The notes under the pieces: generated by a model | Told to the model about the DNA's origin: nothing | Database searches by the model: none | Seen by the model: the letters and a program-made list of their open reading frames with translations, nothing else | Translations under genes and position numbers: made by a program | Shown: positions 12,001 to 63,954 of the stretch, piece by piece | Numbering within the stretch: position 1 is the first letter of the stretch | Layout: each line of letters starts with the position of its first letter | Source: a virus | Length of the DNA: 64,000 bases | Strand: one strand, 5' to 3' | IMG/VR virus record: IMGVR_UViG_3300009497_000001

Positions 12001-12286
12001 GGATGCACAAGAAAATATGCCAGTAGAAACAGAAGAGAGACAACAACTTACCTTTGACTTTGATACTGAGATTAGTGATAAATATCCTGTCATTAGTTCA
12101 TTTTATAATAGTATCTTTACAGTGCCTGGGGTTGGAGGAGATATAGTTGCTTATAGAGATATATTAGAAAATAATAATTTAGATTCTCTTGAAGGTATGG
12201 TGGACTTTTATAATAGTCCAAATACTGAGTTCAAATCAGAAGAGGCTTTTGAGGATTATGTAAAGAAATGTATATTAGGAATTTAA
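2..12286 (+). CDS. Giant (>=4094 aa) fusion protein containing a crAss-like virion RNA polymerase module and an upstream HEXXH zincin-like motif; probably 5'-truncated by the window edge
   Basis: Uninterrupted 12.3-kb ORF starting at the window edge. Residues VRIPSQDNHSSMNVKLVDF...ELVQISGADFDIDTAYVQ parallel the NRAPTLH...NADFDGD catalytic double-psi beta-barrel of RNAP beta-prime (GAT TTT GAT ATA GAT at 9434-9448, in frame). HEAFH is at 5012-5026. The N-terminal residues do not look like a true N-terminus. Confidence 0.8.
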   Translation: MLRVGPGQYAKKSKYMLKSIPQEIKAGFKLGSWKGAAKATGGMMFRYGASGLVEGTQEVSQEAISAAVGGYYSAALRETTQGGALTMSGFYGAAGKEIFTKQGLETFASGFLIGGMMGPYQQVLFTGVPSIFSTARAKVSNSKYFDPSGDKQVVDYAKQQREKEESVIDDVISQANQMGTQLGELDLLLDPAKMSAALQDQEAGMANLSIALNDKYDYMNGRNFSRFYNLYGKYKKGTMGLYRDMVTDFSKMSDTELAEAFDIKDFGRSPEKLREEFIAELGRINEFGERIASKSTDEMFEQKKIDVSEYDESSKGYRDAMFHNRAVDQAKMLYIFSKESFIDAVKRQADIEQSFENEPIFTKQKYGDVRVLVNAESIDTEIKMLTREIKAKEDAGTPASELKKDKRKLKDLKRYYAVLTDPKNLTKKGFFNRAKTKTIKSALQTYLNGIAGDKSDYVNPEVVDTLLQKLIDHQALQEDAFAFSQTVNIMANPEVTAEIVQRNVEYFEYLFKNRKEIYRHQTEQYLEADKKNKLINAIAQYDVYMKPELIRDFLSGEIGVEGLYEGLNRGEFSIDGRALGGAIQLNEDQEIQKKIIAEILNYKLLTEREQDVRDLKSNESTQQQIDVEETLQDAGIDDIQIGDTTRSPMLKNILETEYRKYKESAFTKDAKEFADWRVSDDGKRIKTAYDALKRVWGKGYDIFVTENGQQVSRRRVPTQKDLNTEKGFQDYLNSKVALEDPTVVDILNALDLTMDIFTTENSQTVSKSKPPVAEGVMFDITEVVTDGGSFYKIIDKQGGSLSQVQLDIISTDIRETGTFTDLSKAKRLLDILDREISDGSTFMFDGQAVSKGMSIYDKNTGEEFRINSTANKGGMISIVPSEFYTNDYKTRYNNSKPVSELDFFVNYELEKLSFDTLPTNTYKLYSDRVTKAYTPLSPEAYKFLLNSLTPADFQNLIVDIQENEMINEPIKDNRFYGNDESKANPYIKKQRERYTIALKLSKDQTVDFNKMLTDNKLPIIEGRLVNERGEGTIAFLPNDSLYFVDAKGKVVVPSAMTTDFAKNIIIPSSNNQGMQSALDQVSNDYDTQAVLVSFANDMISKDQTVGTLSEGLKITRSDGIPAYKKGTNPEISLSQLSQSTTTDGAIIIYDIKRDSAGNMVGDEPTIISNLKSDAKTELADRIENNLKDAGLWNKMISGDKTGPNGGYTDRYIMPIEQPNGLMTLATAKAIRVEEDTVIKMFNDLLQQASVANKDNMTTKNGKKVIKDKGFNDEFKLQFIKDYGEFFISGPKGVNVTIDVAPDGALRADLFNKYTGKKGKVYYNAADQQKQGTTIQHLERFSEKIISDPKGNEVGVETLSINNFRKSIPLDASIDMLMQDLVTKLGPEIRTGQFINVEASASAIQATKDKGIFLARPRTELEPDKLKRVEDTEERREDPARARARAITNLGDKISQENVEKAFDKSEDDTISSEAFLEFTNNGVVEIKVIQSIADKIKTGQQLSQRERAIRQAKSQEIEDILKVTVTKDQKNDIDLTLIAQTPIDAINNQIAERELEISEQVGEKKKVRALRKDKIYQDLLKQREDLIGPANKILSPRLSKRDVEDINIFTEWAKTNLPSFINIADIESLGNNMKAGGVRVGAFALDLSSVSGGLRASGTLYTGASNPFRYHEAFHGVYRMLLTPQEQKSLLSFAKKQKRESLRSEGKSISTELKKFRNSADTYANMSDIELENRYYEEYMADQFEIFKTNPKETKIDAEVKSFFTRIIEWFKSLFSTYNKNKLQTLFENIDSAKYAQASVVANDFTLDPSPQVIIANAILPYEGLQVNGSKGYLYLDSNIANNLISSMAASYVSRKTENIDPEISNADIFEDVLEDFAWLYNVTNPINSKYNSSQEASNIAAIEQLERIHDALTFNASEKIEDSPVYKSVFEVLQLIDVQQQIIDNNIDEYENNEGLRNVTQFGKEAYMSGGLASLPTYIRQYLSTITMPYTDAFGNEQLESGEKLVIPINSFKTYNGIIKSVKNETDPLKILQRMYTFSGNNPNTKAAVESIFNDIGINYHDVSEISDIQLPQEIKNPLLFNQITKGFTNYKVNWIFLQQDNTNEVISFSAAERDDTHTQNELWGQAYTTKSLDWKINKEKKKAATRSVNAIYDELIQPEGYEDVPLDNISKKLAQDLFEGVGIKLSPLYVKYSILSASNQTETSNQESILQFNNEVKPILAADMFWLQDIIKENGDLFNSENEGAISRLKKLAVNNALLDETVGLSVFRNVNGDLVNAHQKPTFHLEKVYNLNKEAEINRLESDKFLQNNYLLNSEEFLSMSEANQLQILRLSGLKEVKTLDRSANLDSYQDGVIGTTEYGSFTPKQLTTSIINNYLFDYNSRNNTLKTKMDSAAVAPILIRIMESSNTNDQVLLPVVKAVDEGLRISPDYLGHVSDFIENEYNRIVRENSEEGNLPFQEITTKTGDVIQIPKAIEGYNVPDQDGLMRMNLMFNAKDLISQELKDSLEISATQENPPSFDKAVKEALGSQSINTIIETQLDKKFESFMEMVNTLEVDSKISRLLEKGLLDGVEGAVAQQNARAASRKLNLTDNKTHNLKQIFLNDYLNTKSLNELLLGDQAVILEDSIKQIKRAKGQNAAGDSIYSPVSNPEFGVFESTENINAIILNEPTIFSEFNGESIDNADAQVFTTVKFHRHAQSSLGNLTKAGALALDKIEDGTPLTAEDLYGPQGLAKTNQMLNSKKYVYFDGKTYIKFSAIALTEDLTKNNPDLNRLRLNMEAMERNLGDITFAGPKSAFKMLKTNVQSFGNDIIEPSIQLDARYFREQVKTKTNKDIITEQSQIKALATSEQIDSTPVQIKGMPNVKDIGDVRRLYNKTLSKRIALKFKDKRNLIYTFEGLMSEFSLGKQKNTITPNLQVFLKYAINSLKASKASTNLMEFFTVDPTTGEVKYNINNPISIAKAEQLFMSYFSQGVFQEKIPGHGLALVSDKGFTVLRRVFSMEDNGRLGRNEVIRGGVPEGETVLNLEVNNLGADFKFPSNGKGILVRDRLRYQLAEYDQNGKRTGQYYSEGVFAAHSADIYNQLQRKPNVAIPDSIGKMFAVRIPSQDNHSSMNVKLVDFMPAYYGSSAMFASELVQISGADFDIDTAYVQIKESYYDKNDNTFYAYGKTPGREYTDYVRYINQAVNKDTIYSQAAASFTDQGSKLEDSFTDAELIDSDFSDRAIKAASRLGLPITRSQYNDYVKKNDEPYQAPLNNDVLDYKYALMGNEAVKEISVTPASLTAIEEAYEELKKVAPDYVARLDNENIDVDSITGKIVSFEVNKGAAIGKAVSPNLYLSLLGEYKINVGGSIVKTKGGYIQSSLAFNLRGQTYDSFGTKLNTYGKRIQDEISSIITMLTDNSKENYVAKLGMHPSAVGLAVNAVSLGVPLTDAVLLLNGKLVRDLFAEANNKVDKFDASFTSLVKQQLKGLKKVNAGPQVGLETIEKAVRGEELTKQEQKSILLVINNLNSISSFTGKMASITSMSGRGIGSNFSDIQKRVDDFRDIGVLPGTQEPMMDISPILENSWVKSNIDVFNQIAFNLIPATFISGTPAFNEIYKKISRNLSTNKKTFTVLDQQKVKRDMLSFFTIQAYRQKTKESEVKDGATLTNQLLYPNEFENSIFDAVNRLSQADKGNFFLESFVTMVPMFAETNITGMNLLQANTWRGLDKEQKVDLQTSFTKLYGNPLLRKDAMTIVNYIMVKDGLQAAKGSLLDAISPFVMDEYLQQINNVNDVFLTNKGWLETFGAERNDLVDYFENGYFKSASTNSKVKTITVGDPLDINSRYTSKEGNVVYTMDKDGDPDALPRYINFADAITGFSQLYVLDNIDKKKANYKLSQMEGSYYQNGIGFMFGERPTTLENRDNIRNKGEMKSAYGAESFGAMTVEQMAPPVNSPQNQALANENATIEATEDEINFTAEDSQKAINISDTGLLDSILKSDEQAEENVETEATGIVDAQENMPVETEERQQLTFDFDTEISDKYPVISSFYNSIFTVPGVGGDIVAYRDILENNNLDSLEGMVDFYNSPNTEFKSEEAFEDYVKKCILGI

Positions 12287-18110: not shown

Positions 18111-18123
18111 TTGTGTATATTAT
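18111..18123 (+). promoter_or_regulatory. TTGTGTATATTAT box upstream of the 18166 gene; variant of the TTTGTATATTAT 12-mer at 23091 and 23166
   Basis: Read directly, about 43 nt upstream of ATG 18166 in a 104-nt intergenic gap. Confidence 0.2.
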
Positions 18124-47589: not shown

Positions 47590-47653
47590 AATCCAAATAT
47601 ATTAAAAAGATATGGGCCCAGCATTATACTGAGCCCACTCTTTTGGTTTTATA

Positions 47654-48325
47654 TTACAGATCAAAGTCACTTCCAGAAGCTGTTGCAGGCTCAAAATTTG
47701 AAGCTGTTGTTTCTTTCTTTAAATAAGGTCTAAAATGATTTGTATTATTTCTATCAAATGTTAATAGGTTAGAGCTTTCTTTATCTAACTCTTCTAATGG
47801 CATACCATCTTTACTTCTCTTAGGTAAAAACAAGTCATTATTTACATAACCTTCTTTGTTTTCCCACTCACGTGCACCTAAGCAAGCATTGATATATCCT
47901 GTTTCAGAACATACATTAGCAGCCTTAACCATAAAGTCTTCAATTGTATTTGCCTCAATAGCATCAAGCTCATTTCTTTTACCTACTACTTCAGATAAAA
48001 ATACCATAGCTTTTAATACTTCAGTATCACGGCTAATCTCATTACCATTTGCTAATGTTGCATCTTTAAATGGATATGGTGAGAATCTAACTCTACCTAC
48101 TTGGCCTGCATAACGCTCACCATTAGGATTATTCATATCTTTTAAGAAACCATTAAATTCTCCAGTAACAGGCTCAGACTCTACATGTAATGTAATATTA
48201 TATGCATCTGAATCATAAGGTGTTTGGTCAAATGTAATAGAATTGATTTTGATTTTGTGGTTACCCACTCCAATAACTGGTTTGATGCTACCTGATCCGG
48301 CAGACATGTCTTTAGTACTTAACAT
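47654..48325 (-). CDS. Hypothetical protein (223 aa); sits where the ssDNA-binding partner usually lies next to Sak4-type ATPases
   Basis: Gene context only. ATG start. Confidence 0.55.
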   Translation of the reverse strand: MLSTKDMSAGSGSIKPVIGVGNHKIKINSITFDQTPYDSDAYNITLHVESEPVTGEFNGFLKDMNNPNGERYAGQVGRVRFSPYPFKDATLANGNEISRDTEVLKAMVFLSEVVGKRNELDAIEANTIEDFMVKAANVCSETGYINACLGAREWENKEGYVNNDLFLPKRSKDGMPLEELDKESSNLLTFDRNNTNHFRPYLKKETTASNFEPATASGSDFDL

Positions 48326-48350: not shown

Positions 48351-49034
48351 TTATTGATTATATTTTTCAATACAATCTTTTACAAATTGTAGGTCATTTG
48401 GAATAAACTTATCCTCAAACATACCCATAGGTGATTTACATGTGTTCTCTCCATTGTTTTGAGTTTCAAAACCATATTCAAGTTCACCATCATCATTTTT
48501 ATTTACTTTACCAAATAATACTATAGAGAATAGTCCTTCTAAAGTTAGTGTATTGTCAATCATTTTGCCAATAGTTTTTGCTTTAACTTTTCTATTTCCA
48601 TTTATATCAGTTGAATCTTCTGAGTGAGTTAAGAAAATGATAGTCAAATCTTCTCTCAAGTCTTTAGGAAGTTTTGCAACCATTGCTAAGTTAGCTGCAA
48701 TCTGAGTGAATTTATCATAACCTTTCTCATTAGCTCTGTCAAAATATTCAAAAGAACTCATATACTGCCAATCATCTACTACTAATGTTTTGATATGGCT
48801 CATTTTTTCATCTACATGCTTTATTGCTTTTATTATTCCTGCACTTGATGAAGCTGATGTCAGATTACCTTTTGGGTTATCTTTACTAATTTGTGTGTAT
48901 TTGCTTTTCCATCCCTGGAACGGTAATGGTTTGTTAGCAATGTTTATAATGAAAGTCTCTTTAGGATTTAATGTTCTGATTGAGGTAGACTTTCCTGTAC
49001 CTGAGTCAGCAATTACTAATACGCTGTTTGCCAT
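48351..49034 (-). CDS. Sak4-like/AAA_24 RecA-fold ATPase (227 aa)
   Basis: Walker A LVIADSGTGKST, Walker B TLVVDDW, IIFLTHSE. Confidence 0.7.
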   Translation of the reverse strand: MANSVLVIADSGTGKSTSIRTLNPKETFIINIANKPLPFQGWKSKYTQISKDNPKGNLTSASSSAGIIKAIKHVDEKMSHIKTLVVDDWQYMSSFEYFDRANEKGYDKFTQIAANLAMVAKLPKDLREDLTIIFLTHSEDSTDINGNRKVKAKTIGKMIDNTLTLEGLFSIVLFGKVNKNDDGELEYGFETQNNGENTCKSPMGMFEDKFIPNDLQFVKDCIEKYNQ

Positions 49035-49035
49035 A

Positions 49036-49590
49036 TTACTTTTTTTGAATTACGTTAATTAATTTATTTAATGTTGCATTTATTTCTGATAATGCGTTTA
49101 TCAGCTCTGCATTGGAGAGGAGGGGAGCAGTGTCAGTGCTTTCATCTGGATTAGGCAAATCTGGATTTGCAAAATCTATTATAGCTTTACCCCTATTTGT
49201 TACATCATTTATAACCTTTAGTTCACTAACAGGTATAATGTGTCTCTGAAATCCTGAATTACTTGTTATGATTTCATACTCTTCCTGCCAGTGTGGATTA
49301 TGTTTATGATAATATAGTGTCCTTTTTGGATCTTCTGTATCATAATCTATAGATACAAATTCTGTATATATATCTTCTCCTTTTTCAAATTCACTTGGAA
49401 AAAAGCTTACATGTAGCTCATCCTTTCCAGTTGGCCTGTAAGCCATCTTAGGTATGTATAATGCATTAATCTTTCCTTCTGTCTGAAAGTAATCTTCATG
49501 CTCTTCTCTTAGTGATGCAACCTTCTGCTTTCTTTCTTGCGGTGTTAGTCCCATCTTTTTTTTGTTATTTAAGTTTTTAGTATTTATCAT
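49036..49590 (-). CDS. Hypothetical protein (184 aa)
   Basis: ATG start; overlaps the helicase stop by 4 nt. Confidence 0.6.
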   Translation of the reverse strand: MINTKNLNNKKKMGLTPQERKQKVASLREEHEDYFQTEGKINALYIPKMAYRPTGKDELHVSFFPSEFEKGEDIYTEFVSIDYDTEDPKRTLYYHKHNPHWQEEYEIITSNSGFQRHIIPVSELKVINDVTNRGKAIIDFANPDLPNPDESTDTAPLLSNAELINALSEINATLNKLINVIQKK

Positions 49591-55005: not shown

Positions 55006-55083
55006 ATAATAATTGTTGTTGCCAGAACTAATGTCCAGGTTAGTATTCTAATTAATTTGTTTTTCATAATGTTACATTTAAGG

Positions 55084-55157
55084 TGGACCCTATAGGACTT
55101 GAACCTATGACCTATCCGTTATGAGCGGAGTGCTCTGACCAACTGAGCTAAGAGTCC
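55084..55157 (-). tRNA. tRNA with anticodon CAT (elongator Met or lysidine-modified Ile2), 74 nt
   Basis: Manual cloverleaf: GGACTCT-TA-GCTC-AGTTGGTCA-GAGC-A-CTCCG-CTCATAA-CGGAT-AGGTC-ATAGG-TTCAAGT-CCTAT-AGGGTCC-A. G1-C72 paired, so not an initiator. Followed by CC then T. Confidence 0.85.
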
Positions 55158-55246
55158 TGGTAGCCGGAGTGGGACTTGAACCCACACGAACTATCCAGTT
55201 CAACAGATTTTAAGTCTGTCATGTCTACCAATTCCATCATCCGGCC
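55158..55246 (-). tRNA. tRNA-Leu (anticodon TAA), 89 nt with long variable arm and encoded CCA
   Basis: Anticodon stem-loop ACAGA-CTTAAAA-TCTGT, variable arm GAAC-TGGATA-GTTC, T arm GTGGG-TTCAAGT-CCCAC, acceptor GGCCGGA/TCCGGCT, ACCA end. Confidence 0.9.
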
Positions 55247-55323
55247 TGGTGATCCCACTAGGATTTGAACCTAGAACCTACAGCTTAGAAGGCTGTTGCT
55301 CTATCCAGTTGAGCTATAGGACC
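55247..55323 (-). tRNA. tRNA-Arg (anticodon TCT), 77 nt with encoded CCA
   Basis: GGTCCTA-TA-GCTC-AACTGGATA-GAGC-A-ACAGC-CTTCTAA-GCTGT-AGGTT-CTAGG-TTCAAAT-CCTAG-TGGGATC-A-CCA. Confidence 0.9.
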
Positions 55324-55329
55324 ATAAAG

Positions 55330-55599
55330 TTATGATCTTGAGCCTGAGAAACCTAATTCATAGGCTTCAGCTGGGTGTTCTTCTATCCACATGTGACAGT
55401 TTCTGCAAACTGGTAACCATGTAGATGTATCCAAGTAGTATACGCCACGTCCATGTTTATGATGTACATCAGTAGCCTGCAAAGAACACTTATGGATCTT
55501 TGCATGACACATTGGTTTGTCTGTTAAATACTGCCTACGCTTTTTAGAATAGGCAGTATTCAGTTTAGACATTTTATTTGAGACTTTTTTGATGCTCAT
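55330..55599 (-). CDS. HNH endonuclease-like protein (89 aa; an alternative ATG at 55572 gives 80 aa)
   Basis: CHAKIHKC...DVHHKHGRG...CRNCHMWIEEHP, an HNH/zinc-finger pattern. Confidence 0.6.
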   Translation of the reverse strand: MSIKKVSNKMSKLNTAYSKKRRQYLTDKPMCHAKIHKCSLQATDVHHKHGRGVYYLDTSTWLPVCRNCHMWIEEHPAEAYELGFSGSRS

Positions 55600-56113
55600 T
55601 TTTTAGTTCTAAATAGTTTTTAGGGAGTAATCCCAAAGACATAAATTTTAATATTACATCCTCATAAGTCATACCTAACTCTTTGAAACTCATAGTGTTA
55701 GTGTAATCATCTAATACTTCACTAGCTGGTATATTTGCAATATACTGTGCTAATGGAGAATGCTTGAATGTATTGCTAAGATAAGCATTTACACGCTTAT
55801 TACAAATAGTTTGCTTCCAAGCATTTATCTCTCTCTGTCCACGTTTCCAAACCTTAGTTATTCTACGTTTCTTGTCCCAATGTAGCTTCCTAACTTCTTC
55901 AGGTTTATAAACCTTAAGGCCATGAAGTACACGTTTAAACAAAAAATGTTGATACGGATTTAGCTTGGTGTAACTTAAAGAGTTTACTAATGATGGCGGA
56001 TGAAGCTGATATTCAGCTAATATACCAAAGTAGCTGTAACGTTCTTCCCTTCTGGAAAGATTGTCTAGTTGTTGTTGTTGTTGAAGTTGTTCTAATTGTT
56101 CCTGAGATAGCAT
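55574..56113 (-). CDS. Hypothetical early-type protein (179 aa)
   Basis: ATG start, preceded by box A. Confidence 0.6.
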   Translation of the reverse strand: MLSQEQLEQLQQQQQLDNLSRREERYSYFGILAEYQLHPPSLVNSLSYTKLNPYQHFLFKRVLHGLKVYKPEEVRKLHWDKKRRITKVWKRGQREINAWKQTICNKRVNAYLSNTFKHSPLAQYIANIPASEVLDDYTNTMSFKELGMTYEDVILKFMSLGLLPKNYLELKNEHQKSLK

Positions 56114-56160: not shown

Positions 56161-56173
56161 GGAAGGGAGTAGT
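56161..56173 (-). promoter_or_regulatory. Box A: GGAAGGGAGTAGT (plus-strand reading), 48 nt upstream of ATG 56113; candidate phage-specific promoter element
   Basis: One of 5-6 copies of the GGAAGGGAGCAGT box, each 43-69 nt upstream of a minus-strand start. Flanking similarity continues (..AAAGTTA..GGnTnGTATAAG). Confidence 0.45.
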
Positions 56174-56185
56174 TAAAGTTAATTA

Positions 56186-56223
56186 GGGTTGTATAAGAAT
56201 TACTTAAAAAACTTACACAACCC
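56186..56223 (-). terminator. 12-bp hairpin (GGGTTGTATAAG-14 nt-CTTACACAACCC) downstream of 56256 gene and abutting box A; terminator, processing or promoter hairpin
   Basis: The single A/C mismatch on the plus strand becomes a G-U pair in the minus-sense RNA. The loop contains U6. No clean U-tract follows the stem. Confidence 0.35.
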
Positions 56224-56255
56224 CTTTTAACCAAACAAATTATTAATAACTACTC

Positions 56256-56873
56256 TTATAGTTCAAAGGTTTCAGCCTCTTCTTCTACAAGTTCTTCTAC
56301 TTTATCAGTAACTTCTTCTGTCTCAGTATCATTGCTTTCTTCTAAATCATCTACATCATCTACTGTAGAATTATCAAAACCTTCTGTTTTAATATCAAAT
56401 GCTTCTTCTACACTAGCTGCAGGTACACTTATAGAATTAGATTTTGCACTGCTAGTACCATTAGCATCTTTGATGTCTTGCCCATTAGTGTGAGCTATTA
56501 GCACGTCTTGAGCTGTTGTATCAGCTGTAAACATTGCTTTCCTATATATAGGTTGACCATCAACACAGCATACTATACCAGTATCACCTGCATATTTATA
56601 ATCTCTTTCAGGATCATTAGAATTAAATGGATCTAATTGTTCTTTGATAACAATCTTACCAGCTATTTCATCACCTGCTTTAAAGTTTAGGGATTGTAAG
56701 TCTTCTACCTTACCCTGTAGTAACGTTGATACATTAGACTTTTTAACCCAGCCATTGTTACCAAATGTAACTCTAACTTGTTGCAGTCTTACATAACCAT
56801 ACTCTGAATTGTTTTTTGATTGATTGATAACATTACCCATGTCATCTGCACATACATTGACTTTGCTTTGCAT
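56256..56873 (-). CDS. Protein with a globular N-domain and a highly acidic C-terminal tail (205 aa); SSB-like or DNA-mimic candidate
   Basis: The C-terminal ~50 aa are almost entirely D/E/T/V and end in EEEAETFEL. Confidence 0.6.
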   Translation of the reverse strand: MQSKVNVCADDMGNVINQSKNNSEYGYVRLQQVRVTFGNNGWVKKSNVSTLLQGKVEDLQSLNFKAGDEIAGKIVIKEQLDPFNSNDPERDYKYAGDTGIVCCVDGQPIYRKAMFTADTTAQDVLIAHTNGQDIKDANGTSSAKSNSISVPAASVEEAFDIKTEGFDNSTVDDVDDLEESNDTETEEVTDKVEELVEEEAETFEL

Positions 56874-56914
56874 TTTTTTTGATTTTAAAAAATTAATAAT
56901 TGATTTTGTGATGA

Positions 56915-57181
56915 CTACACGTCATCTGAATGAAAATATGGGTCATCAAGCTTTTCATATGCTTCTATCTCATCTAATGCAGGTTCATTTTCATCTATGA
57001 ACTCTAGTTCATAGTCTACTACTACTGTTTTACCTGAGAAAGCATTATAAAAGGGATTAACCACTTCTTTTGTGTATGCTGAACTTAAGCCATTAAGATC
57101 TTTTACCTCATCATCAGTTAACGAGAGGTATTGCTCTACTGAGCACTCAATTATACGGCCATTGGGTAGTTGTACTATCAT
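56915..57181 (-). CDS. Hypothetical acidic protein (88 aa from the ATG; the track start at 57193 is TTG)
   Basis: First ATG is at 57181 (MIVQLPNG...). Confidence 0.5.
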   Translation of the reverse strand: MIVQLPNGRIIECSVEQYLSLTDDEVKDLNGLSSAYTKEVVNPFYNAFSGKTVVVDYELEFIDENEPALDEIEAYEKLDDPYFHSDDV

Positions 57182-57280
57182 ATCTATTAACAAAGATATA
57201 AATATAACTTACCTTGGCTCACTAATTATAAGAAATTATTAGTTAAATTCAAAAATAAACTGCACTTATATAGCTATCAC

Positions 57281-57532
57281 TTAAATAATAACTAGTTTGC
57301 CTTTTACTCTTTTTATGTAATTATGCTGTCTCAACTCTTTTAAGAGCTTAAAGACATATCTTTGTGATACATCCATTGAGTCAGCAAGTGTTGAAGCAGA
57401 CGGATATGCTTCACGGTTTTTATCTGCATAGCATGCTATGAGACTATATAACCCTTTTGCTTGAATAGATAAATTGGGATCTGACAAGACTTTATACTTA
57501 ACTATGCCAAATCTATCTGATTTCTTTGACAT
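57281..57532 (-). CDS. Winged-helix/HTH_36-like DNA-binding protein (83 aa)
   Basis: LSIQAKGLYSLIACYADKNREAYPSASTLADSMDVSQRYVFKLLKELRQHNYI matches the HTH_36 pattern. Confidence 0.6.
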   Translation of the reverse strand: MSKKSDRFGIVKYKVLSDPNLSIQAKGLYSLIACYADKNREAYPSASTLADSMDVSQRYVFKLLKELRQHNYIKRVKGKLVII

Positions 57533-57725
57533 GGTCCTTTAATAGTATAAGTACGGCCAAAGACTCACTTTCTTCATTAGCAAGTTTGTCATTACCCATA
57601 TTATACTTATTATTCATATATCTCCCAAAAGACATATTCTTTCCATCTACACGGTTTAATGCATTATCTAATGCACGCCATGCTTTTTGTTCACTTTGTA
57701 GTAACTCCATTGATATATCTGCCAT
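57513..57725 (-). CDS. Hypothetical protein (70 aa)
   Basis: ATG start; 20-nt overlap with the downstream HTH gene. Confidence 0.5.
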   Translation of the reverse strand: MADISMELLQSEQKAWRALDNALNRVDGKNMSFGRYMNNKYNMGNDKLANEESESLAVLILLKDHVKEIR

Positions 57726-57726
57726 T

Positions 57727-58254
57727 TTAATCTGTTTTATCTTCTGGAAATAATTCCTCTTGATTTATAACTACGTCTGTATCTAATATATCAAAATATT
57801 TTATATCAGACTCATTAACCTTGGTCAAATCTAATGGATTTACTTGGTGATCATATGTTTTTAGCTTCTTTTGTTTATCATGATAGAATAAATCTACTTT
57901 GATAGAGCTATAAAATGGGTTAAACTTATCATTACCCCATGATGAATCACCTGTGACTTTACCATATACTCTTCCATTACCTGGGCTTAGGCCCATATCT
58001 TCAAGTATATCCCATTCAAACTCTGATCCTGGGTGGTAACTTAATGGTTCTAATGTTACAAAATCACCTATACTAACAGTATTATACTCATCTTTAGATA
58101 AACTTAGATGTAATATAATCTCTTTAGCATGATCTGGTAACTCTCTCATTATAATATTGAATATATGTTCATTATTACACGGTGTGTTTGGTATTAAAAC
58201 ATTTTTTAATATGTTATTTACTATGATCTCATTGATCTTAAATTGATTTGCCAT
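57727..58254 (-). CDS. Hypothetical early-type protein (175 aa)
   Basis: ATG start, preceded by box B. Confidence 0.6.
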   Translation of the reverse strand: MANQFKINEIIVNNILKNVLIPNTPCNNEHIFNIIMRELPDHAKEIILHLSLSKDEYNTVSIGDFVTLEPLSYHPGSEFEWDILEDMGLSPGNGRVYGKVTGDSSWGNDKFNPFYSSIKVDLFYHDKQKKLKTYDHQVNPLDLTKVNESDIKYFDILDTDVVINQEELFPEDKTD

Positions 58255-58296
58255 GATTATTTTAATTGATTATTATTTAATTTATTCCATAAGTGA

Positions 58297-58309
58297 GGAA
58301 GGGAGCAGT
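58297..58309 (-). promoter_or_regulatory. Box B: GGAAGGGAGCAGT, 43 nt upstream of ATG 58254
   Basis: Exact consensus copy, preceded (plus-sense) by CATAAGTGA as in box C (CATAAGAAA). Confidence 0.45.
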
Positions 58310-58322
58310 TAGAGTAACAAGT

Positions 58323-58376
58323 ATGGATAGTAACGCAACCCTAAACAATTATATAAAAGGTATTATTACTATCCAT
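58323..58376 (-). repeat. 11-bp perfect inverted repeat ATGGATAGTAA-32 nt-TTACTATCCAT abutting box B
   Basis: Read directly. The proximal arm is the conserved ATGGAT.GTA part of the extended box. Confidence 0.5.
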
Positions 58377-58472
58377 TTTGCCCACCACTCATTATTTTAT
58401 TCTACAAGGCCTAACTACAGTAGTATATATTATATATAACTAACTACTGGTACTGTTTGTATGAACTGTGGT

Positions 58473-58802
58473 TCACTTTTTTGATGTAAATTCTATTGAT
58501 ACAAACGGTAATAGCATCAACCAAGAGATTTCATCAATCTTGTGATGAGGATCTACACCAAATGCAAATCCAAATATTGGTACTATTTCTATAGATGCTT
58601 TAGGTAACATTCTTACCTTGGACATAAAGACTAAATACACAACAGAGTTAGCTACTATTGCTATGCCCACTAACAGTAAAGTTATAAGTATAACTGCGGA
58701 TGTCTCATACATGGTTAGTATCATGTATGCTCCTACTATAAATAATATAGGTAGTACTACTACGAATAATAATTTTAATAATGACCTGAATAAATGTTTC
58801 AT
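58473..58802 (-). CDS. Multi-pass small membrane protein (109 aa)
   Basis: Three hydrophobic stretches (LLFVVVLPILFIVGAYMIL, AVILITLLLVGIAIVANSVVYLVF, ISWLMLLPFV). Confidence 0.6.
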   Translation of the reverse strand: MKHLFRSLLKLLFVVVLPILFIVGAYMILTMYETSAVILITLLLVGIAIVANSVVYLVFMSKVRMLPKASIEIVPIFGFAFGVDPHHKIDEISWLMLLPFVSIEFTSKK

Positions 58803-58837
58803 AATTTCTAATTGTTTATTGATTAATTAATTTGTTT

Positions 58838-59269
58838 TTATAATGGTACGATTGAATCACCGTTGATTATTAGATCTGATAAGTCTAACTGATTATACTC
58901 ATAGTCTCCATTCCAATATGATACATCATATAGACTCATATAGTAATTTGATGTAGTATATATAAAGTAATCCGGATTTGTATTTGATGTGTCCATAGCC
59001 CACTCTAACCAATCACTTTGTGTATCAGTTGGTGGGTTTGTTGCAAACCATGCTAGCATATATACTGGCATATCAAAGCTATCCCATGCATAATACTTAT
59101 AATTTATGATTGTAGTATTATTAACACTATCCCATACATATGATTCCACATTCACAGCATACACTGTGAGTGTATCAACAGGCGGTTGTTGTACCTCTAC
59201 TATTTCAAGAGGCTCTTTTTCACAGCTCATTATAGATACTAAGAGAAAGAATATTGATATATATTTCAT
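58838..59269 (-). CDS. Putative lipoprotein (143 aa)
   Basis: MKYISIFFLLVSIMSCEKE is a signal peptide with a lipobox-like IMSC. Trp/Tyr/Asp-rich mature part. Confidence 0.55.
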   Translation of the reverse strand: MKYISIFFLLVSIMSCEKEPLEIVEVQQPPVDTLTVYAVNVESYVWDSVNNTTIINYKYYAWDSFDMPVYMLAWFATNPPTDTQSDWLEWAMDTSNTNPDYFIYTTSNYYMSLYDVSYWNGDYEYNQLDLSDLIINGDSIVPL

Positions 59270-59273
59270 AAGA

Positions 59274-59465
59274 TTAATTATTATGGAGATTACAATACGA
59301 TATATATTCTCTCTCCTGGTTATGTTTGATTACTTTTAATGTGTGTTCTGCTTCTTGCTTAGTTTTATGATAACGTGACTGTCTATCATAAGGCATACCA
59401 TTCTCTGTACGACCTATGTAATATCCAGCTGCTGATCTTAAAACCTTTACTGATGAAATTTTCAT
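59274..59465 (-). CDS. Hypothetical basic protein (63 aa)
   Basis: ATG start, 4 nt upstream of the lipoprotein gene. Confidence 0.5.
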   Translation of the reverse strand: MKISSVKVLRSAAGYYIGRTENGMPYDRQSRYHKTKQEAEHTLKVIKHNQEREYISYCNLHNN

Positions 59466-59531
59466 AATTGTTTATTTAATTTAGACATTTGATTAATAAG
59501 ATTCCGGGTACTATGTCTATTATCCTATAGA

Positions 59532-59544
59532 GGAAGAGACAGAC
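59532..59544 (-). promoter_or_regulatory. Degenerate box copy GGAAGAGACAGAC, 67 nt upstream of ATG 59465
   Basis: Preceded by GA as in boxes A and B, giving a shared GAGGAAG. The 3' half diverges. A 7-bp hairpin TAGACAT/ATGTCTA (59482-59519) lies between it and the gene. Confidence 0.25.
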
Positions 59545-59792
59545 ATTACCCATGTAGTATTGTTGAGTGTAATAGTTACTCTTGTAATATAAGCTAGCAT
59601 AAGAGTGATGATAAACGTGGACGCATGACTTGCAAATCAATTGTCAATCTCCGTACCATACCCAATTTAATGTTTATGCTCTTATGTTAGCTATATTAAT
59701 ATATTAATGTGCTATGATAGTTATGATAGTGGTAAAAGGTGGTATATTGTGGGTATGAGACCTCACATTTATAATGCTATACACATTTAAAT

Positions 59793-59835
59793 AAAAAAAA
59801 CAACTACAAACCTGGTTGTTACACCAGATCTGTAG
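59793..59835 (-). terminator. Intrinsic terminator after 59859-60197
   Basis: Minus-sense CTACA-gat-CTGGT-gtaaca-ACCAG-gtt-TGTAG followed by ttg+T8. Confidence 0.6.
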
Positions 59836-59858
59836 AGTTTTTACCTTTTACTGCAGGT

Positions 59859-60197
59859 TTACACTGCTTCTATCCAAAACATACCTGATTCTTCTCCTGT
59901 TGTTAGGTTTAACACAGGATTATCAGATAGCTTGAAGCCTTTCATCTCATCACCTCTATTAAGTTTAGCACTTAACTGTTTGATGACTGGATGATCAGAA
60001 CGCATTACTTGTCCAGTCTCTGGATCTATTAGGCTTAATACGCCAAATGTGATGTTGTTCTGTGTTCTTGTTGCTACATTAACGCCTGCTAATGTAGTAG
60101 CTTTTTGTATCAATGGTACATCTGATGCAATAATAGTTGCACTTCCTGTTGACTCATTGATATTGAGCTTTCTAAAATAAACTGAATTTGTTTCCAT
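59859..60197 (-). CDS. Small protein, paralogue A of a tandem pair (112 aa)
   Basis: VYFRKLNINESTGSATII...FGVLSLIDPETGQVMRSDHP.IKQL.AKLN.GDE...FKLSD is shared with 60754-61083. Confidence 0.7.
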   Translation of the reverse strand: METNSVYFRKLNINESTGSATIIASDVPLIQKATTLAGVNVATRTQNNITFGVLSLIDPETGQVMRSDHPVIKQLSAKLNRGDEMKGFKLSDNPVLNLTTGEESGMFWIEAV

Positions 60198-60241
60198 AAT
60201 TTTAATTATAATTAATGATTAATAAATATTTGCATAAGAAA

Positions 60242-60254
60242 GGAAGGGAGCAGT
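60242..60254 (-). promoter_or_regulatory. Box C: GGAAGGGAGCAGT, 45 nt upstream of ATG 60197
   Basis: Exact consensus copy. Confidence 0.45.
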
Positions 60255-60285
60255 GAAAGTTATATGGATGGTATAAGATTGTATG

Positions 60286-60400
60286 ACCAGTAGCAGTTAA
60301 AATAAAAAAAGTACTGGTGCATCCGTAGAACCTCCTCTGGTAGGTGTATTAAGCAGTAGCCTCCGCAGGCCTTGCTTCCCCAGGATGCATTCCCAGTACA
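60286..60400 (-). ncRNA. Candidate structured small RNA: GC-rich multi-stem element between boxes D and C
   Basis: Minus-sense GTACTGG(60399-60393)/CCAGTAC(60317-60311) plus GCATCC/GGATGC form a 13-bp outer stem. Inner hairpins are AAGCA-AG-GCCT-GCGG-AGGC-TAC-TGCTT and ACCT-ACCAGAGG-AGGT. An alternative pairing is ACCAGTA/TACTGGT (60318-60286). Local G+C is clearly above the surroundings. The strand is assumed from the flanking boxes. Confidence 0.3.
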
Positions 60401-60407
60401 TATTATG

Positions 60408-60420
60408 GGAAGGGAGCAGT
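60408..60420 (-). promoter_or_regulatory. Box D: GGAAGGGAGCAGT with no protein gene directly downstream; sits just after a terminator and before the structured element
   Basis: Exact consensus copy. Confidence 0.4.
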
Positions 60421-60425
60421 TGTTT

Positions 60426-60452
60426 AAAAAAAGATGTGCTTTTACACACACC
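60426..60452 (-). terminator. Intrinsic terminator after 60461-60679
   Basis: Minus-sense GGUGUGU-GUAAAA-GCACAUC (7 bp including G-U pairs valid only in this sense) followed by U7. Confidence 0.55.
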
Positions 60453-60460
60453 TTTATTTA

Positions 60461-60679
60461 CTACCATTCATCCATCATATCCATCTCACTAAACTCTGCA
60501 TCAATCATATCTTCTTGGAATCTACGGTCAATGCCTGTTAGTTTAGGTTTAGTAGCCTTTTGTTTAAGTGATTCATACACTTTCATAAACTCTTCTACAT
60601 TCATATCTCCTGCCTCTTGGCAGATAGCATCAAGTTGTAGTTTTATCTTGTGATGCATTTTGTACAATCTGTTTTCCAT
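60461..60679 (-). CDS. Hypothetical acidic protein (72 aa)
   Basis: ATG start, bracketed by two terminators. Confidence 0.6.
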   Translation of the reverse strand: MENRLYKMHHKIKLQLDAICQEAGDMNVEEFMKVYESLKQKATKPKLTGIDRRFQEDMIDAEFSEMDMMDEW

Positions 60680-60711
60680 AATTTAGTGAGTACGCTCTCC
60701 AGCTTTTAGTT

Positions 60712-60743
60712 AAAAAAAAGAGGTGTGCTGTTACACACACCCC
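60712..60743 (-). terminator. Intrinsic terminator after 60754-61083
   Basis: Minus-sense GGTGTG-tgtaacag-CACACC followed by TC+T8. Stem sequence is related to the 60426 terminator. Confidence 0.6.
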
Positions 60744-60753
60744 TGTACTTCAT

Positions 60754-61083
60754 CTAGGCTTGTTCAACCCAGAAGAGGTTCTCATTCTCCTCACCAGTCT
60801 GTAGGTTGACAACCTTTTGGTCAGACAGTTTGAAGTTAGGTAGCTCATCACCTACATTCAACTTAGCTCCAAGCTGTTTGATTGTAGGGTGGTCACTACG
60901 CATCACCTGATTAGTTTCAGGGTCTATTAGTGAAAGAACACCAAAGGAGATGTTTCCTTGAGTTCTTGTTCCCACAGACAAACCAGCAAGTGTAGTTTGT
61001 TTCTGTGACATTGGAGCAGAGCTCACAATGATTGTTGCTGAGCCAGTAGACTCATTGATGTTTAGTTTTCTAAAGTAAACCAT
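60754..61083 (-). CDS. Small protein, paralogue B of the tandem pair (109 aa)
   Basis: See 59859-60197. Confidence 0.7.
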   Translation of the reverse strand: MVYFRKLNINESTGSATIIVSSAPMSQKQTTLAGLSVGTRTQGNISFGVLSLIDPETNQVMRSDHPTIKQLGAKLNVGDELPNFKLSDQKVVNLQTGEENENLFWVEQA

Positions 61084-61151
61084 TTGTAAAAGTATTAAGT
61101 TAATTAATTAAGTGTGGATAATTACGGGGGGTGACCCAACCACAAACATTA

Positions 61152-61164
61152 GGCGGGGAGCAGT
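61152..61164 (-). promoter_or_regulatory. Box E: GGCGGGGAGCAGT variant, 69 nt upstream of ATG 61083
   Basis: Shares the GGGAGCAGT core. Lies in the G-tract-rich divergent region. Confidence 0.35.
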
Positions 61165-61211
61165 TTTATATAGGGTCTCACCTATGCCAAATACATAATT
61201 TTGCCAGGACC

Positions 61212-61287
61212 GGTGGGGGGATATAAAATTTTTTTAATCAGGTGGGGGCTATGTTCTGAGTCAAAAGTTTTTATAGGTTGGGGGAAT
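61212..61287. repeat. Three direct G-tract repeats GGTGGGGGGATAT / GGTGGGGGCTAT / GGTTGGGGGAAT, starts spaced 29 and 35 nt apart; a further G6 lies at 61126-61131
   Basis: Read directly. G5-6 runs are conspicuous in this AT-rich genome. Located at the minus/plus divergent strand switch. Confidence 0.6.
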
Positions 61288-61333
61288 TTAGTATATTGTT
61301 CTTATAGACGCAGTGTAACTTAAATAATAGAAT

Positions 61334-61656: not shown

Positions 61657-61854
61657 ATGGCAGTAAAGAAAAAAAAGAAAAGCACAGTAAATAGTTCTGG
61701 AAACTATACTAAACCGGGAATGCGTAAAAGGTTATTTAATTCCATCAAGGCTGGAGGTAAAGGAGGAGCACCGGGACAGTGGTCAGCACGTAAAGCTCAA
61801 ATGCTTGCAAAAAGGTATAAAGCAAACGGAGGCGGATATAAAAGTAAAAAGTAA
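61657..61854 (+). CDS. Small lysine-rich basic protein (65 aa)
   Basis: MAVKKKKKST...GQWSARKAQMLAKRYKANGGGYKSKK. ATG is 2 nt after the upstream stop. Confidence 0.6.
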   Translation: MAVKKKKKSTVNSSGNYTKPGMRKRLFNSIKAGGKGGAPGQWSARKAQMLAKRYKANGGGYKSKK

Positions 61855-61865
61855 TTTGCAAGATA

Positions 61866-62108
61866 ATGGCAAAAACAAAACAACAAAAAAGTCTTACTAG
61901 ATGGACCAAACAGAAATGGACAACTGCATCAGGAAAGAAAAGTTCTGAAACAGGTGAGGTATATGCACCAAAGAAAACTATTGATAAGTTAAAGAGCACT
62001 AAAAAGGGTAAGGCTAAGCTAGCTGCAGCTAATAAAAAGAAGCGTGCTGCAACTAAAAAAGGTAAACAACACGCATCTCACGGATTGCATAAAGGAAAGA
62101 AAAGATAA
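61866..62108 (+). CDS. Small lysine-rich basic protein (80 aa)
   Basis: MAKTKQQKSLTRWTKQKWTTASGKKS...KKKRAATKKGKQHASHGLHKGKKR. Confidence 0.6.
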   Translation: MAKTKQQKSLTRWTKQKWTTASGKKSSETGEVYAPKKTIDKLKSTKKGKAKLAAANKKKRAATKKGKQHASHGLHKGKKR

Positions 62109-62398
62109 TGGCAGCAAAGAAAGATAGTAGACTAACAAAAGCAGGGGTATCAGGTTATAATAAACCTAAACGTACTCCGTCACACCCAAAGAAGTCTCAC
62201 GTAGTGGTAGCTAAGGTGGGAGATAAAGTAAAGACAATTAGATTTGGTCAACAGGGTGTAAAGACAGCAGGTAAGCCTAAAGCCGGTGAGTCAGCAAAGC
62301 AAAAGGCTAGACGTAAGAGCTTTAAAGCTAGACATGGTAAAAATATAGCTAAAGGTAAAATGAGTGCAGCATATTGGGCAGACAAAGTAAAATGGTAG
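62108..62398 (+). CDS. Small lysine-rich basic protein (96 aa)
   Basis: TAATG overlap with the previous gene. KPKRTPSHPKKSHVVVAKVGDKVKTIRFGQQG...RRKSFKARHGKNI...SAAYWADKVKW. Confidence 0.6.
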   Translation: MAAKKDSRLTKAGVSGYNKPKRTPSHPKKSHVVVAKVGDKVKTIRFGQQGVKTAGKPKAGESAKQKARRKSFKARHGKNIAKGKMSAAYWADKVKW

Positions 62399-63030: not shown

Positions 63031-63954
63031 ATGAAGATGCTAAAAAAAGGTGATAGAGGCCAAGAAGTAAAGACATTACAACAAAATCTTTTAATTAAAC
63101 CTGACGGAATATTTGGAAGACAAACAGAAAAACATGTTATAAGGTTTCAACTTATGCATAATTTATCTGCTGATGGTATAGTAGGTGCAGAGACATGGAC
63201 TCTTTTATTACAGTTACCAAGTGCGTTAACCATAGCAATAGATGAAGATACTGATACACAAGGTCAAATGTTTGAGACACCTTATGATCAAATTATACAT
63301 AAGCATTATTTACCTAAAGGGGAATATGTAGAAGGACCCGTTAGTAATCATTATATCTTTTTACATCATACTGCAGGTAATGCTAATCCTTATAGATGCA
63401 TTGATCACTGGGGAAGAGATAGCAGGGGACGCATTGCAACTGAATTTGTATTAGGAGGTATCAATCACAGGAATGGTAATGATGAATATAATGGTGTCAT
63501 GGTACAAGCATTTCCTACAGGAGCACAAGGATTTCATTTAGGTAAGACTGGATCAGGATATATGAACAGGCATTCAGTAGGAATTGAAATATGTAACATG
63601 GGATACTTAGATAGTAAAACAATGAAAACATATGTAGGTTCAGTATGTCAGGAAGAACAAGTATGTGAGCTACCTGAACATTTTAAGGATAAACTACACT
63701 GGCATAACTACACAGAAGAACAAATCAAAGCCACAGAAAAGTGGATCAAGTGGGTAGGTGAAAGAGATGGTGTAGATATAAGATTAGGTTTAAAACAATA
63801 TATCAAGAAATATGGTCCATCTAAAGGTTTTGATTTTCAAGAGGATGCATATTATGGAAAGGTAAGAGGTTTATTAACTCACGGTAATGTGAGAACAGGT
63901 AAGTCAGATATATATCCACATCCAGATATGGTTGATATGATAATGAGTTTATAA
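63031..63954 (+). CDS. Endolysin: N-terminal peptidoglycan-binding domain plus N-acetylmuramoyl-L-alanine amidase (Amidase_2/PGRP-like), 307 aa
   Basis: GDRGQEVKTLQQNL...DGIFGRQTEKHVIRFQ...LSADGIVGAETW is a PG_binding_1 pattern. IFLHHTAGN and HSVGIEICNMGY match amidase_2 motifs. Confidence 0.75.
   Translation: MKMLKKGDRGQEVKTLQQNLLIKPDGIFGRQTEKHVIRFQLMHNLSADGIVGAETWTLLLQLPSALTIAIDEDTDTQGQMFETPYDQIIHKHYLPKGEYVEGPVSNHYIFLHHTAGNANPYRCIDHWGRDSRGRIATEFVLGGINHRNGNDEYNGVMVQAFPTGAQGFHLGKTGSGYMNRHSVGIEICNMGYLDSKTMKTYVGSVCQEEQVCELPEHFKDKLHWHNYTEEQIKATEKWIKWVGERDGVDIRLGLKQYIKKYGPSKGFDFQEDAYYGKVRGLLTHGNVRTGKSDIYPHPDMVDMIMSL

Follow-up and report, generated by a model that had tools for sequence, protein, structure and literature searches.

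A repeated, strand-specific box in a marine crAss-like phage is a candidate early promoter, probably read by the virion RNA polymerase

Which DNA signals direct a crAss-like phage's injected RNA polymerase to its first genes is the question raised by a 13-mer, GGAAGGGAGCAGT in gene sense on the minus strand, that recurs in IMG/VR record IMGVR_UViG_3300009497_000001. The stretch analysed, 64,000 nucleotides (nt) long and hereafter called the window, belongs to a marine, as yet uncultured phage of the crAss-like group; no near-identical DNA was matched to it among GenBank phages and, since related IMG/VR contigs from aquatic samples reach 108–118 kb, it represents about 60% of a genome. Few known viruses are as abundant as the crAss-like phages, and their injected polymerase is structural kin of the eukaryotic RNA-interference polymerases. 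To our knowledge, the sole experimental study of start-site choice by such an enzyme reported neither a promoter motif nor specific initiation on double-stranded DNA. In the literature consulted no promoter was given for crAss-like virion polymerases, a 2023 review of the Crassvirales does not contain the word 'promoter', and the 13-mer was found only as unrelated primers. Our overall reading is that the boxes are early promoters, probably read by the virion polymerase.

The exact copies of GGAAGGGAGCAGT at 58297, 60242 and 60408, the copy with one change at 56161 and that with two changes at 61152, all reported in a preliminary description of the window, are present and exceed what chance would give: allowing up to two mismatches, six matches were observed against 0.46 expected, a number reached in 0 of 100 shuffles. 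By using a position matrix trained on related phages only, exactly six sites were found, scoring 29–36 bits, against 4.4 bits for the next best match and a shuffle maximum of 15.5. All six lie in gene sense on the minus strand, within 49–61 kb, and none on the opposite strand, in the 34 kb of plus-strand genes or in the late modules. The boxes differ in two respects from what had been described. A full-strength copy at 49119–49131, ahead of a Sak4-like gene, had been missed and, being in the replication module, shows that the box is not confined to the cluster of small genes; moreover, the stretch at 59532–59544 (minus strand), earlier called a degenerate copy, is not a box, nothing besides the six sites scoring above 4.4 bits, and is part of a different conserved noncoding element.

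Distinct instances were collected from the window and from 23 related contigs, and the alignment of all 59 gave the full element as aACTGCTCCC(T/C)(T/A)CC-T-N7-G. The T at +13 (57 of 59 instances) and the G at +21 (52 of 59) both fall outside the search pattern, and their near-invariance makes the element longer than the 13-mer. The stretch from +14 to +20 is AT/pyrimidine-rich, and conservation ahead of the box is weak, at most 0.5 bit per position; the similarity of both flanks that had been claimed is thus stronger than stated on the downstream side and weak on the upstream one. A wider set of 71 instances had the G at +21 in 59; of the 12 without it, 10 were the upstream box of a tandem pair, in which the second box supplies the G. 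Across the 23 related contigs, 75 of 75 copies were in gene sense and occupied syntenic positions between genes, with diverged flanks, and no dyad symmetry was found in the box. Anatomy, orientation, conservation and lineage variation (see below) of the element are in this way established at the level of sequence.

In the window, the six sites, here named P1 to P6, are all on the minus strand, and the distance from the G at +21 to the next start codon is 34–76 nt; the box-to-ATG distances of 43, 45, 47 and 69 nt given previously were also reproduced. P1 (61143–61165) stands first among the candidate promoters of the early/replicative module on the minus strand and has the variant box ACTGCTCCCCGCC at 61152–61164 with the T at +13 and a predicted start at G 61143, 60 nt before the ATG at 61083 (30.3 bits); its variant form, CCCC[G/A/T]CC, is kept at this position across all relatives, in which no copies were found upstream of P1, on the lysis/late-gene side. 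P2 (60399–60421; exact box 60408–60420, 29.5 bits), with a predicted start at G 60399, would drive a small RNA. P3 (60233–60255; exact box 60242–60254, 35.7 bits) has its predicted start at G 60233, with the ATG at 60197 following after 36 nt, and P4 (58288–58310; exact box 58297–58309, 34.7 bits) at G 58288, with 34 nt between it and the ATG at 58254. The P4 unit comprises the genes 57727–58254 and 57513–57725 and a helix-turn-helix (HTH)/replication-initiator-like gene at 57281–57532, for which PHROG matches were obtained. P5 (56152–56174; box ACTACTCCCTTCC at 56161–56173, 29.1 bits) has its predicted start at G 56152, 39 nt before the ATG at 56113, and is followed by the gene 55574–56113, an HNH gene (55330–55599), a transfer RNA cluster and an SNF2 helicase gene. 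The newly found P6 (49110–49132; box ACTGCTCCCCTCC / GGAGGGGAGCAGT at 49119–49131, 35.4 bits) lies in the 3' end of the open reading frame (ORF) 49036–49590, with a predicted start at G 49110, 76 nt before the Sak4-like gene 48351–49034. This ORF-embedded copy occurs only in a subset of the relatives and is absent from many; among the carriers it is read in two frames, as TAPL or LLPS, which points to selection on the DNA and not on the peptide.

P5 represents a distinct subclass: the orthologous sites in L001–L007 and L020 always have ACTACTCCC, with A for G, and a conserved inverted repeat CCTC-N6-GAGG across the predicted start, which may be a regulatory feature.

The predicted start can be compared with a structure at P2. 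The structured element that had been noticed behind the copy at 60408 is present as an RNA of about 96 nt (60304–60399, minus strand), 5'-GUACUGG...CCAGUAC followed by U7, with a minimum free energy of −38.3 kcal/mol and a z score of −4.2. Its closing stem starts exactly at the G at +21 (60399), and the end of the stem adjoins the U7 run. The same relation between box and stem is repeated in L004, L005 and in distant lineages having other boxes. An alignment of 10 homologues supports 30 consensus pairs, 11 of them with compensatory changes; no Rfam family matched the RNA or its region. The core was located in 23 viral and 25 metagenome loci, is near-invariant (CCUGGGGGAGCAAGGCCAGYCGUGGCUACUGCUUAAUAUACCUACGAGAGGWAGUCCUACGG) and is enclosed by a closing stem that co-varies. 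Homologues (L119–L139, L314–L338) belong to marine and freshwater phage contigs of several lineages, and in phages of 42–58 kb with a related replication module the same RNA is preceded by TTTACG-N17-TATAAT, a sigma-70-like sequence. A metagenome scan for transcript-like contig ends at the small RNA revealed none.

Several boxes are also placed directly behind intrinsic terminators. On the minus strand of the window, the terminator scan found such signals after the first gene (60710–60744, hairpin AGGGGTGTGTGTAACAGCACACCTCT and T8), after the gene 59859–60197 (59794–59835) and after the gene 47654–48325, where it closes the P6 unit (47602–47638); a further one, 5 nt upstream of P2 (60426–60455, GGTGTGTGTAAAAGCACATC and T7, with G-U pairs), was read from the sequence and is not listed by the scan. 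As the P2 box follows this T-run by only 5 nt, no other promoter could fit in between, and transcripts would rarely include the box. In the window's own lineage, a terminator-adjacency statistic based on crude criteria gave a modest difference (13/60 vs 14% in controls); the adjacency is clear for two more distant lineages, B and C, in which nearly each of the 6–12 boxes follows a GC hairpin with a T-run and precedes a small ORF.

The terminators at 60426–60455 and 60710–60744 are nearly identical, GGTGTGTGTAA[A/C]AGCACA[T/C]C plus T-run, and flank a box-less gene of 72 aa (60461–60679). Some close relatives (L002, L003) are without this gene and without the small RNA, and together with the twin terminators this absence suggests the gain of a cassette by recombination at repeated signals.

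The sequence of the box changes from one lineage to another, at constant spacing. Syntenic relatives at 33–53% protein identity carry the small RNA behind other pyrimidine-rich boxes, with the same spacing of about 8 nt, and the variants ACTGCTCCCTTCC, CTGCTCCCCAACTA, ACTTCTTYTTACT, AACATCTTWTTAC and TCATCTTCTTACT, once aligned, have AC..CT...T.C.T in common. Lineage B (L121, L137) uses ACTTCTTYTTACT, in 6–8 copies per locus, and lineage C (L130) uses AACATCTTWTTAC, in 12 copies per locus, in both cases all on one strand; TCATCTTCTTACT is found in L320, L327 and L338, ACATCTTAATACT in L319, and CTGCTCCCCAACTA, CTGCTCCCAAACTA or CTGCTCCCCAGCT in closer lineages. These variants were found more productively by targeted searches than by de novo k-mer searches, which, in 80 helicase-anchored loci, were dominated by AT-rich words and mostly uninformative. 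Such lineage-specific letters fit phage-encoded polymerases and not a conserved host sigma factor. The polymerase, in turn, diverges fast among relatives, the identity passing from 90% to at most 54%.

A mosaic was observed in IMGVR_UViG_3300030376_002336 (L117, L143/L295), whose Sak4-like protein is 90% identical to that of the window and whose polymerase catalytic segment is 43% identical; no box precedes its Sak4 gene.

Several lines of evidence, namely the sense-only orientation, the syntenic conservation amid diverged flanks, the fixed G behind an AT-rich stretch, the small RNA stem at that G, the placement after terminators, the two reading frames and the lineage-specific variants, give good support to the 'promoter' half of the proposal that these are promoters for the virion polymerase. 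From them follow a predicted start point and a putative promoter activity: the conserved, strand-specific element is likely an early promoter of the single-block kind, with the fixed G as its +1. Its recognition block would be the 14 conserved nt (aACTGCTCCCYWCC-T), at about −21 to −8, the following 7 AT/pyrimidine-rich nt would melt, and transcription would begin at the invariant G, in the window at 61143, 60399, 60233, 58288, 56152 and 49110. The six promoters would then fire minus-strand units, giving five messenger RNAs with leaders of 34–76 nt and one structured RNA of about 96 nt, and the intrinsic terminators would close several of these units into terminator-promoter-gene cassettes. 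If read by the virion polymerase, the boxes would mark the first genes turned on after DNA entry, with no need of a host sigma factor.

As for the reader of the boxes, a candidate is encoded at the other end of the window. A giant ORF on the plus strand (2–12286, at least 4094 aa and extending past the window edge) contains a crAss-type RNA polymerase module with the DFDID motif (GADFDIDTAY at aa 3145). By tblastn, its polymerase segment matched only catalytic subunits of crAss-like RNA polymerases, including phi14:2 g066, at 21–25% identity with E values from 2e-7 to 3e-4, and a PDB sequence search with the polymerase half of the ORF gave no match; the phage hence carries a two-barrel polymerase of the gp66 type, with its DFD(I/V)D motif. 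In phi14:2, the replicative module, placed on one strand, is transcribed early and in a rifampicin-resistant manner by the injected gp66, and abundant early noncoding RNAs come from near the start of this module (Drobysheva et al., bioRxiv 10.1101/2020.03.07.982082). The corresponding module of the window consists of minus-strand genes from 61083 down to about 35182, for an SNF2 helicase, DnaB, the Sak4-like annealing protein, a primase, RusA, an exonuclease and a PolA-type polymerase (the DNA polymerase of the window is 32% identical to its phi14:2 counterpart), headed by small genes without known function; the boxes stand upstream of genes on this early strand and not of the middle or late modules, the temporal class being taken from phi14:2. 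Since a crAss-type polymerase is encoded, since the phi14:2 enzyme transcribes the same module, and since the box is unlike TTG/TAnnTTTG or any bipartite sigma promoter and varies between relatives, we infer that the reader is most likely the injected crAss-type two-barrel virion polymerase from the giant ORF. The second half of the proposal, 'for the virion polymerase', is accordingly a reasonable inference rather than a demonstration. On the more specific claim, that the boxes are the promoter of this enzyme and that the variants of marine and freshwater relatives (CTGCTCCC..., CTTCTTYTTAC..., CATCTTWTTAC...) co-evolve with it, we see an even chance.

A number of observations weigh against this interpretation. 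The mapped early 5' ends of phi14:2 share no detectable motif, and gp66 in vitro transcribes only single-stranded or denatured DNA (bioRxiv 10.1101/2020.03.07.982082); in the first 14 kb of phi14:2 we found no box and no repeated intergenic words of this kind. Few contigs carry both the box region and the polymerase region, too few to show co-variation of the two. Start site and promoter activity are themselves predictions from sequence. The small, early-looking genes 60461–60679 and 58473–59465 have no box of their own; together with the box in the replication module, this leaves only part of the 'early regulon' that the boxes had been said to define. Finally, a strongly conserved block, TTRTRTRTTTDGCRT (61184–61198, minus strand), is always found 19–20 nt upstream of the P1 box, and only at P1; it may serve P1 as an upstream element or be a −7-like element of host type, and in the case of a host-type promoter the P1 box would be inside a transcript.

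This block is also the starting point of the first alternative, in which the boxes are promoters read by the host RNA polymerase, by means of an alternative host sigma or of a specificity factor supplied by the phage, which would be injected or else expressed from the first gene through a host-type promoter ahead of P1. The block TTRTRTRTTTDGCRT does resemble a TnnnTTTG −7 element, the units are bounded by hairpin-plus-U terminators typical of bacterial polymerases, and no motif was found for gp66 in phi14:2. However, the element is one contiguous block from −21 to −8, unfit for a −35/−10, −33/−7 or −24/−12 geometry, P2–P6 lack the upstream block, the box changes between related phages, which is unexpected for a conserved host sigma, and in lineages B and C, where boxes are present, no homologue of the first gene was detected. 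We compared the element with known classes of bacterial promoters. The logo shows a single block with no TAnnTTTG, in agreement with the unlikeness to the host promoter noted earlier, and does not correspond to the Bacteroidota sigma-A promoter, in which about 19 nt separate a TTG at −33 from a TAnnTTTG at −7; in sequence and in the lack of a two-block geometry it differs from sigma-70 promoters too, and on inspection lacks the GG at −24 and GC at −12, with 10 nt between, of sigma-54, while the TGGCA...TTGGCA upstream of P1 has a spacing of 18. On the whole, a reading by the host polymerase appears unlikely.

It is quite improbable that the box acts instead in RNA, as a leader element of transcripts coming from further upstream, for example a boxA-like antitermination signal or a signal for processing or stability. 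The box is indeed pyrimidine-rich, strand-specific and located in leaders right after terminators, there is a possible promoter upstream of P1, and UGCUCCCUU is partly similar to the rrn boxA, UGCUCUUUA. But strong terminators stand 5–6 nt upstream of many boxes, so the box would be rarely transcribed, the closing stem of the small RNA begins after the box, at the G at +21, the fixed-distance G and the AT-rich spacer would have no role, and a lineage-specific variation is unfit for the binding of a conserved host Nus factor; upstream terminators, small RNA start and varying sequence led us to reject membership in the boxA/Nus antitermination class. Slightly less probable still is that the box is an operator for a phage regulator, such as the HTH protein 57281–57532 encoded in the cluster, or a site of recombination and cassette exchange, with no role in initiation: the gene content between boxes does differ among relatives, by gain and loss of cassettes, but the box has no dyad symmetry, its strict orientation, the fixed G at +21 and the small RNA start would be unexplained, and repeated promoters are known to recombine as a side effect, an example being the PeSL elements of T4-type phages, which need not count as an alternative to a promoter role.

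Apart from the boxes, other features of the region were recorded. The divergent intergenic region at 61184–61290, between 61083 and 61334, is very strongly conserved across lineages and has three C5-6 tracts on the plus strand (GGTGGGGGG at 61212, GGTGGGGGC at 61241 and GGTTGGGGG at 61277); in lineages B and C, too, C-tracts lie ahead of the first box. Possible roles of the region are those of an upstream element for P1, of a promoter of host type or of a genome-end/packaging signal. The predicted P1 transcript opens with a conserved hairpin, GGGG-N2-3-CCCC(C) (GUGGUUGGGUCACCCCCCGUAAU, 61120–61143, minus strand), whose stem is kept and whose loop varies across lineages. The first early gene, 60754–61083 (109 aa), and the gene behind P3, 59859–60197 (112 aa), are paralogues, about 72–75% identical, for which no PHROG match was obtained and which were undetected in lineages B and C. 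Between 59859–60197 and the gene 59274–59465, two minus-strand noncoding segments, 59481–59589 and 59684–59799, are conserved in many lineages, more than the neighbouring genes, and may represent another noncoding RNA, a leader or something like an origin; the stretch at 59532–59544 belongs to this element. The two segments are separated by an insertion of about 95 nt (59590–59683) with inverted-repeat flanks, taatataagctagcataagag / ctcttatgttagctatatta, absent in the 99%-identical relative L001 and located elsewhere in L007, which looks like a small mobile or duplicated element.

Three transfer RNA genes, Met-CAT, Leu-TAA and Arg-TCT (55082–55323, minus strand), lie between the HNH and SNF2 helicase genes, inside the unit that P5 would start. 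On the plus strand, 3' of the divergent region, there are three small, very lysine-rich proteins in a row (65, 80 and 96 aa; 61657–62398), just ahead of an amidase-like lysin gene (63031–63954) with a peptidoglycan-binding-like N-terminus, a domain read from sequence only. A further, AT-rich motif, TTTGTATATTAT (plus strand), which differs from the box, occurs at 18112, 23091, 23166 and 61288, exactly at two of these positions and otherwise with 1–2 changes, always intergenic and ahead of plus-strand genes, where it may act as a middle/late promoter element. The window-wide counts of both TAnnTTTG and TTTGTATATTAT showed no enrichment over shuffles, for the latter because the genome is AT-rich, so these motifs are useful only at single intergenic sites.

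If the boxes are promoters of the virion polymerase, a T7-like code of promoter/polymerase specificity would exist in an unrelated polymerase lineage, and a widely conserved, unclassified early RNA of about 96 nt would be among the first products of the enzyme. The boxes also draw attention to this early small RNA, strongly conserved and common to several aquatic phage groups. A candidate promoter defined to 22 nt, for which natural variants and a predicted +1 are at hand, would make promoter-specific transcription directly testable in vitro, and could serve structural studies of promoter complexes and the prediction of early regulons in metagenomic crAss-like genomes; in this way an open question becomes a bench experiment.

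It is useful to compare the proposed promoter with known systems. The Bacteroidota sigma-A promoter (−33 TTG / −7 TAnnTTTG) belongs to the expected host phylum, and one full canonical match is present in the minus-strand module (TTG-N20-TATCTTTG, 51595–51565); the box has neither its sequence nor its bipartite geometry. Phi14:2 is of the same virus order and has the same layout, with an early replicative module on one strand, but differs in the early 5' ends, which have no common motif according to its authors, and in its first 14 kb, where neither the box nor a homologue of the small RNA was found. With the early promoters of coliphage N4 the boxes would share the setting of an injected giant virion polymerase and a cluster of small early genes with few phage-specific promoters, punctuated by terminators and without need of host sigma. 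The N4 promoters are hairpins on the template strand, with 5–7-bp stems and 3-nt loops, read by a T7-like single-subunit enzyme, whereas here there is no conserved hairpin and the polymerase is a two-barrel DFDID enzyme: no consistent fold was found at the six sites, stem lengths across box and start were no greater than in re-paired controls, and only the P5 orthologues have a CCTC-N6-GAGG.

A comparable architecture is that of the T7/T3/SP6 promoters, contiguous blocks of about 20 bp by the start with an upstream recognition part, an AT-rich melting part, a G at +1 and lineage-specific variants. The polymerase family is unrelated, the C/T-rich box is not like TAATACGACTCACTATAG, and among the genes annotated in the window, which covers about 60% of the genome, none for a T7-like polymerase was found; the box would work like this family without being a member of it. 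In the Thermus phage P23-45, a strongly conserved AT-rich motif lies just upstream of the pre-early starts mapped by ONT-cappable-seq and ChIP-seq, and the virion RNA polymerase is fused to the tail tape protein (PMC10770324). The motif described here is C-rich and known from sequence alone, and the two polymerases are only distantly related; nevertheless, with a two-barrel virion polymerase and a motif common to the relatives that carry it, P23-45 is the closest analogue in logic to the system proposed here.

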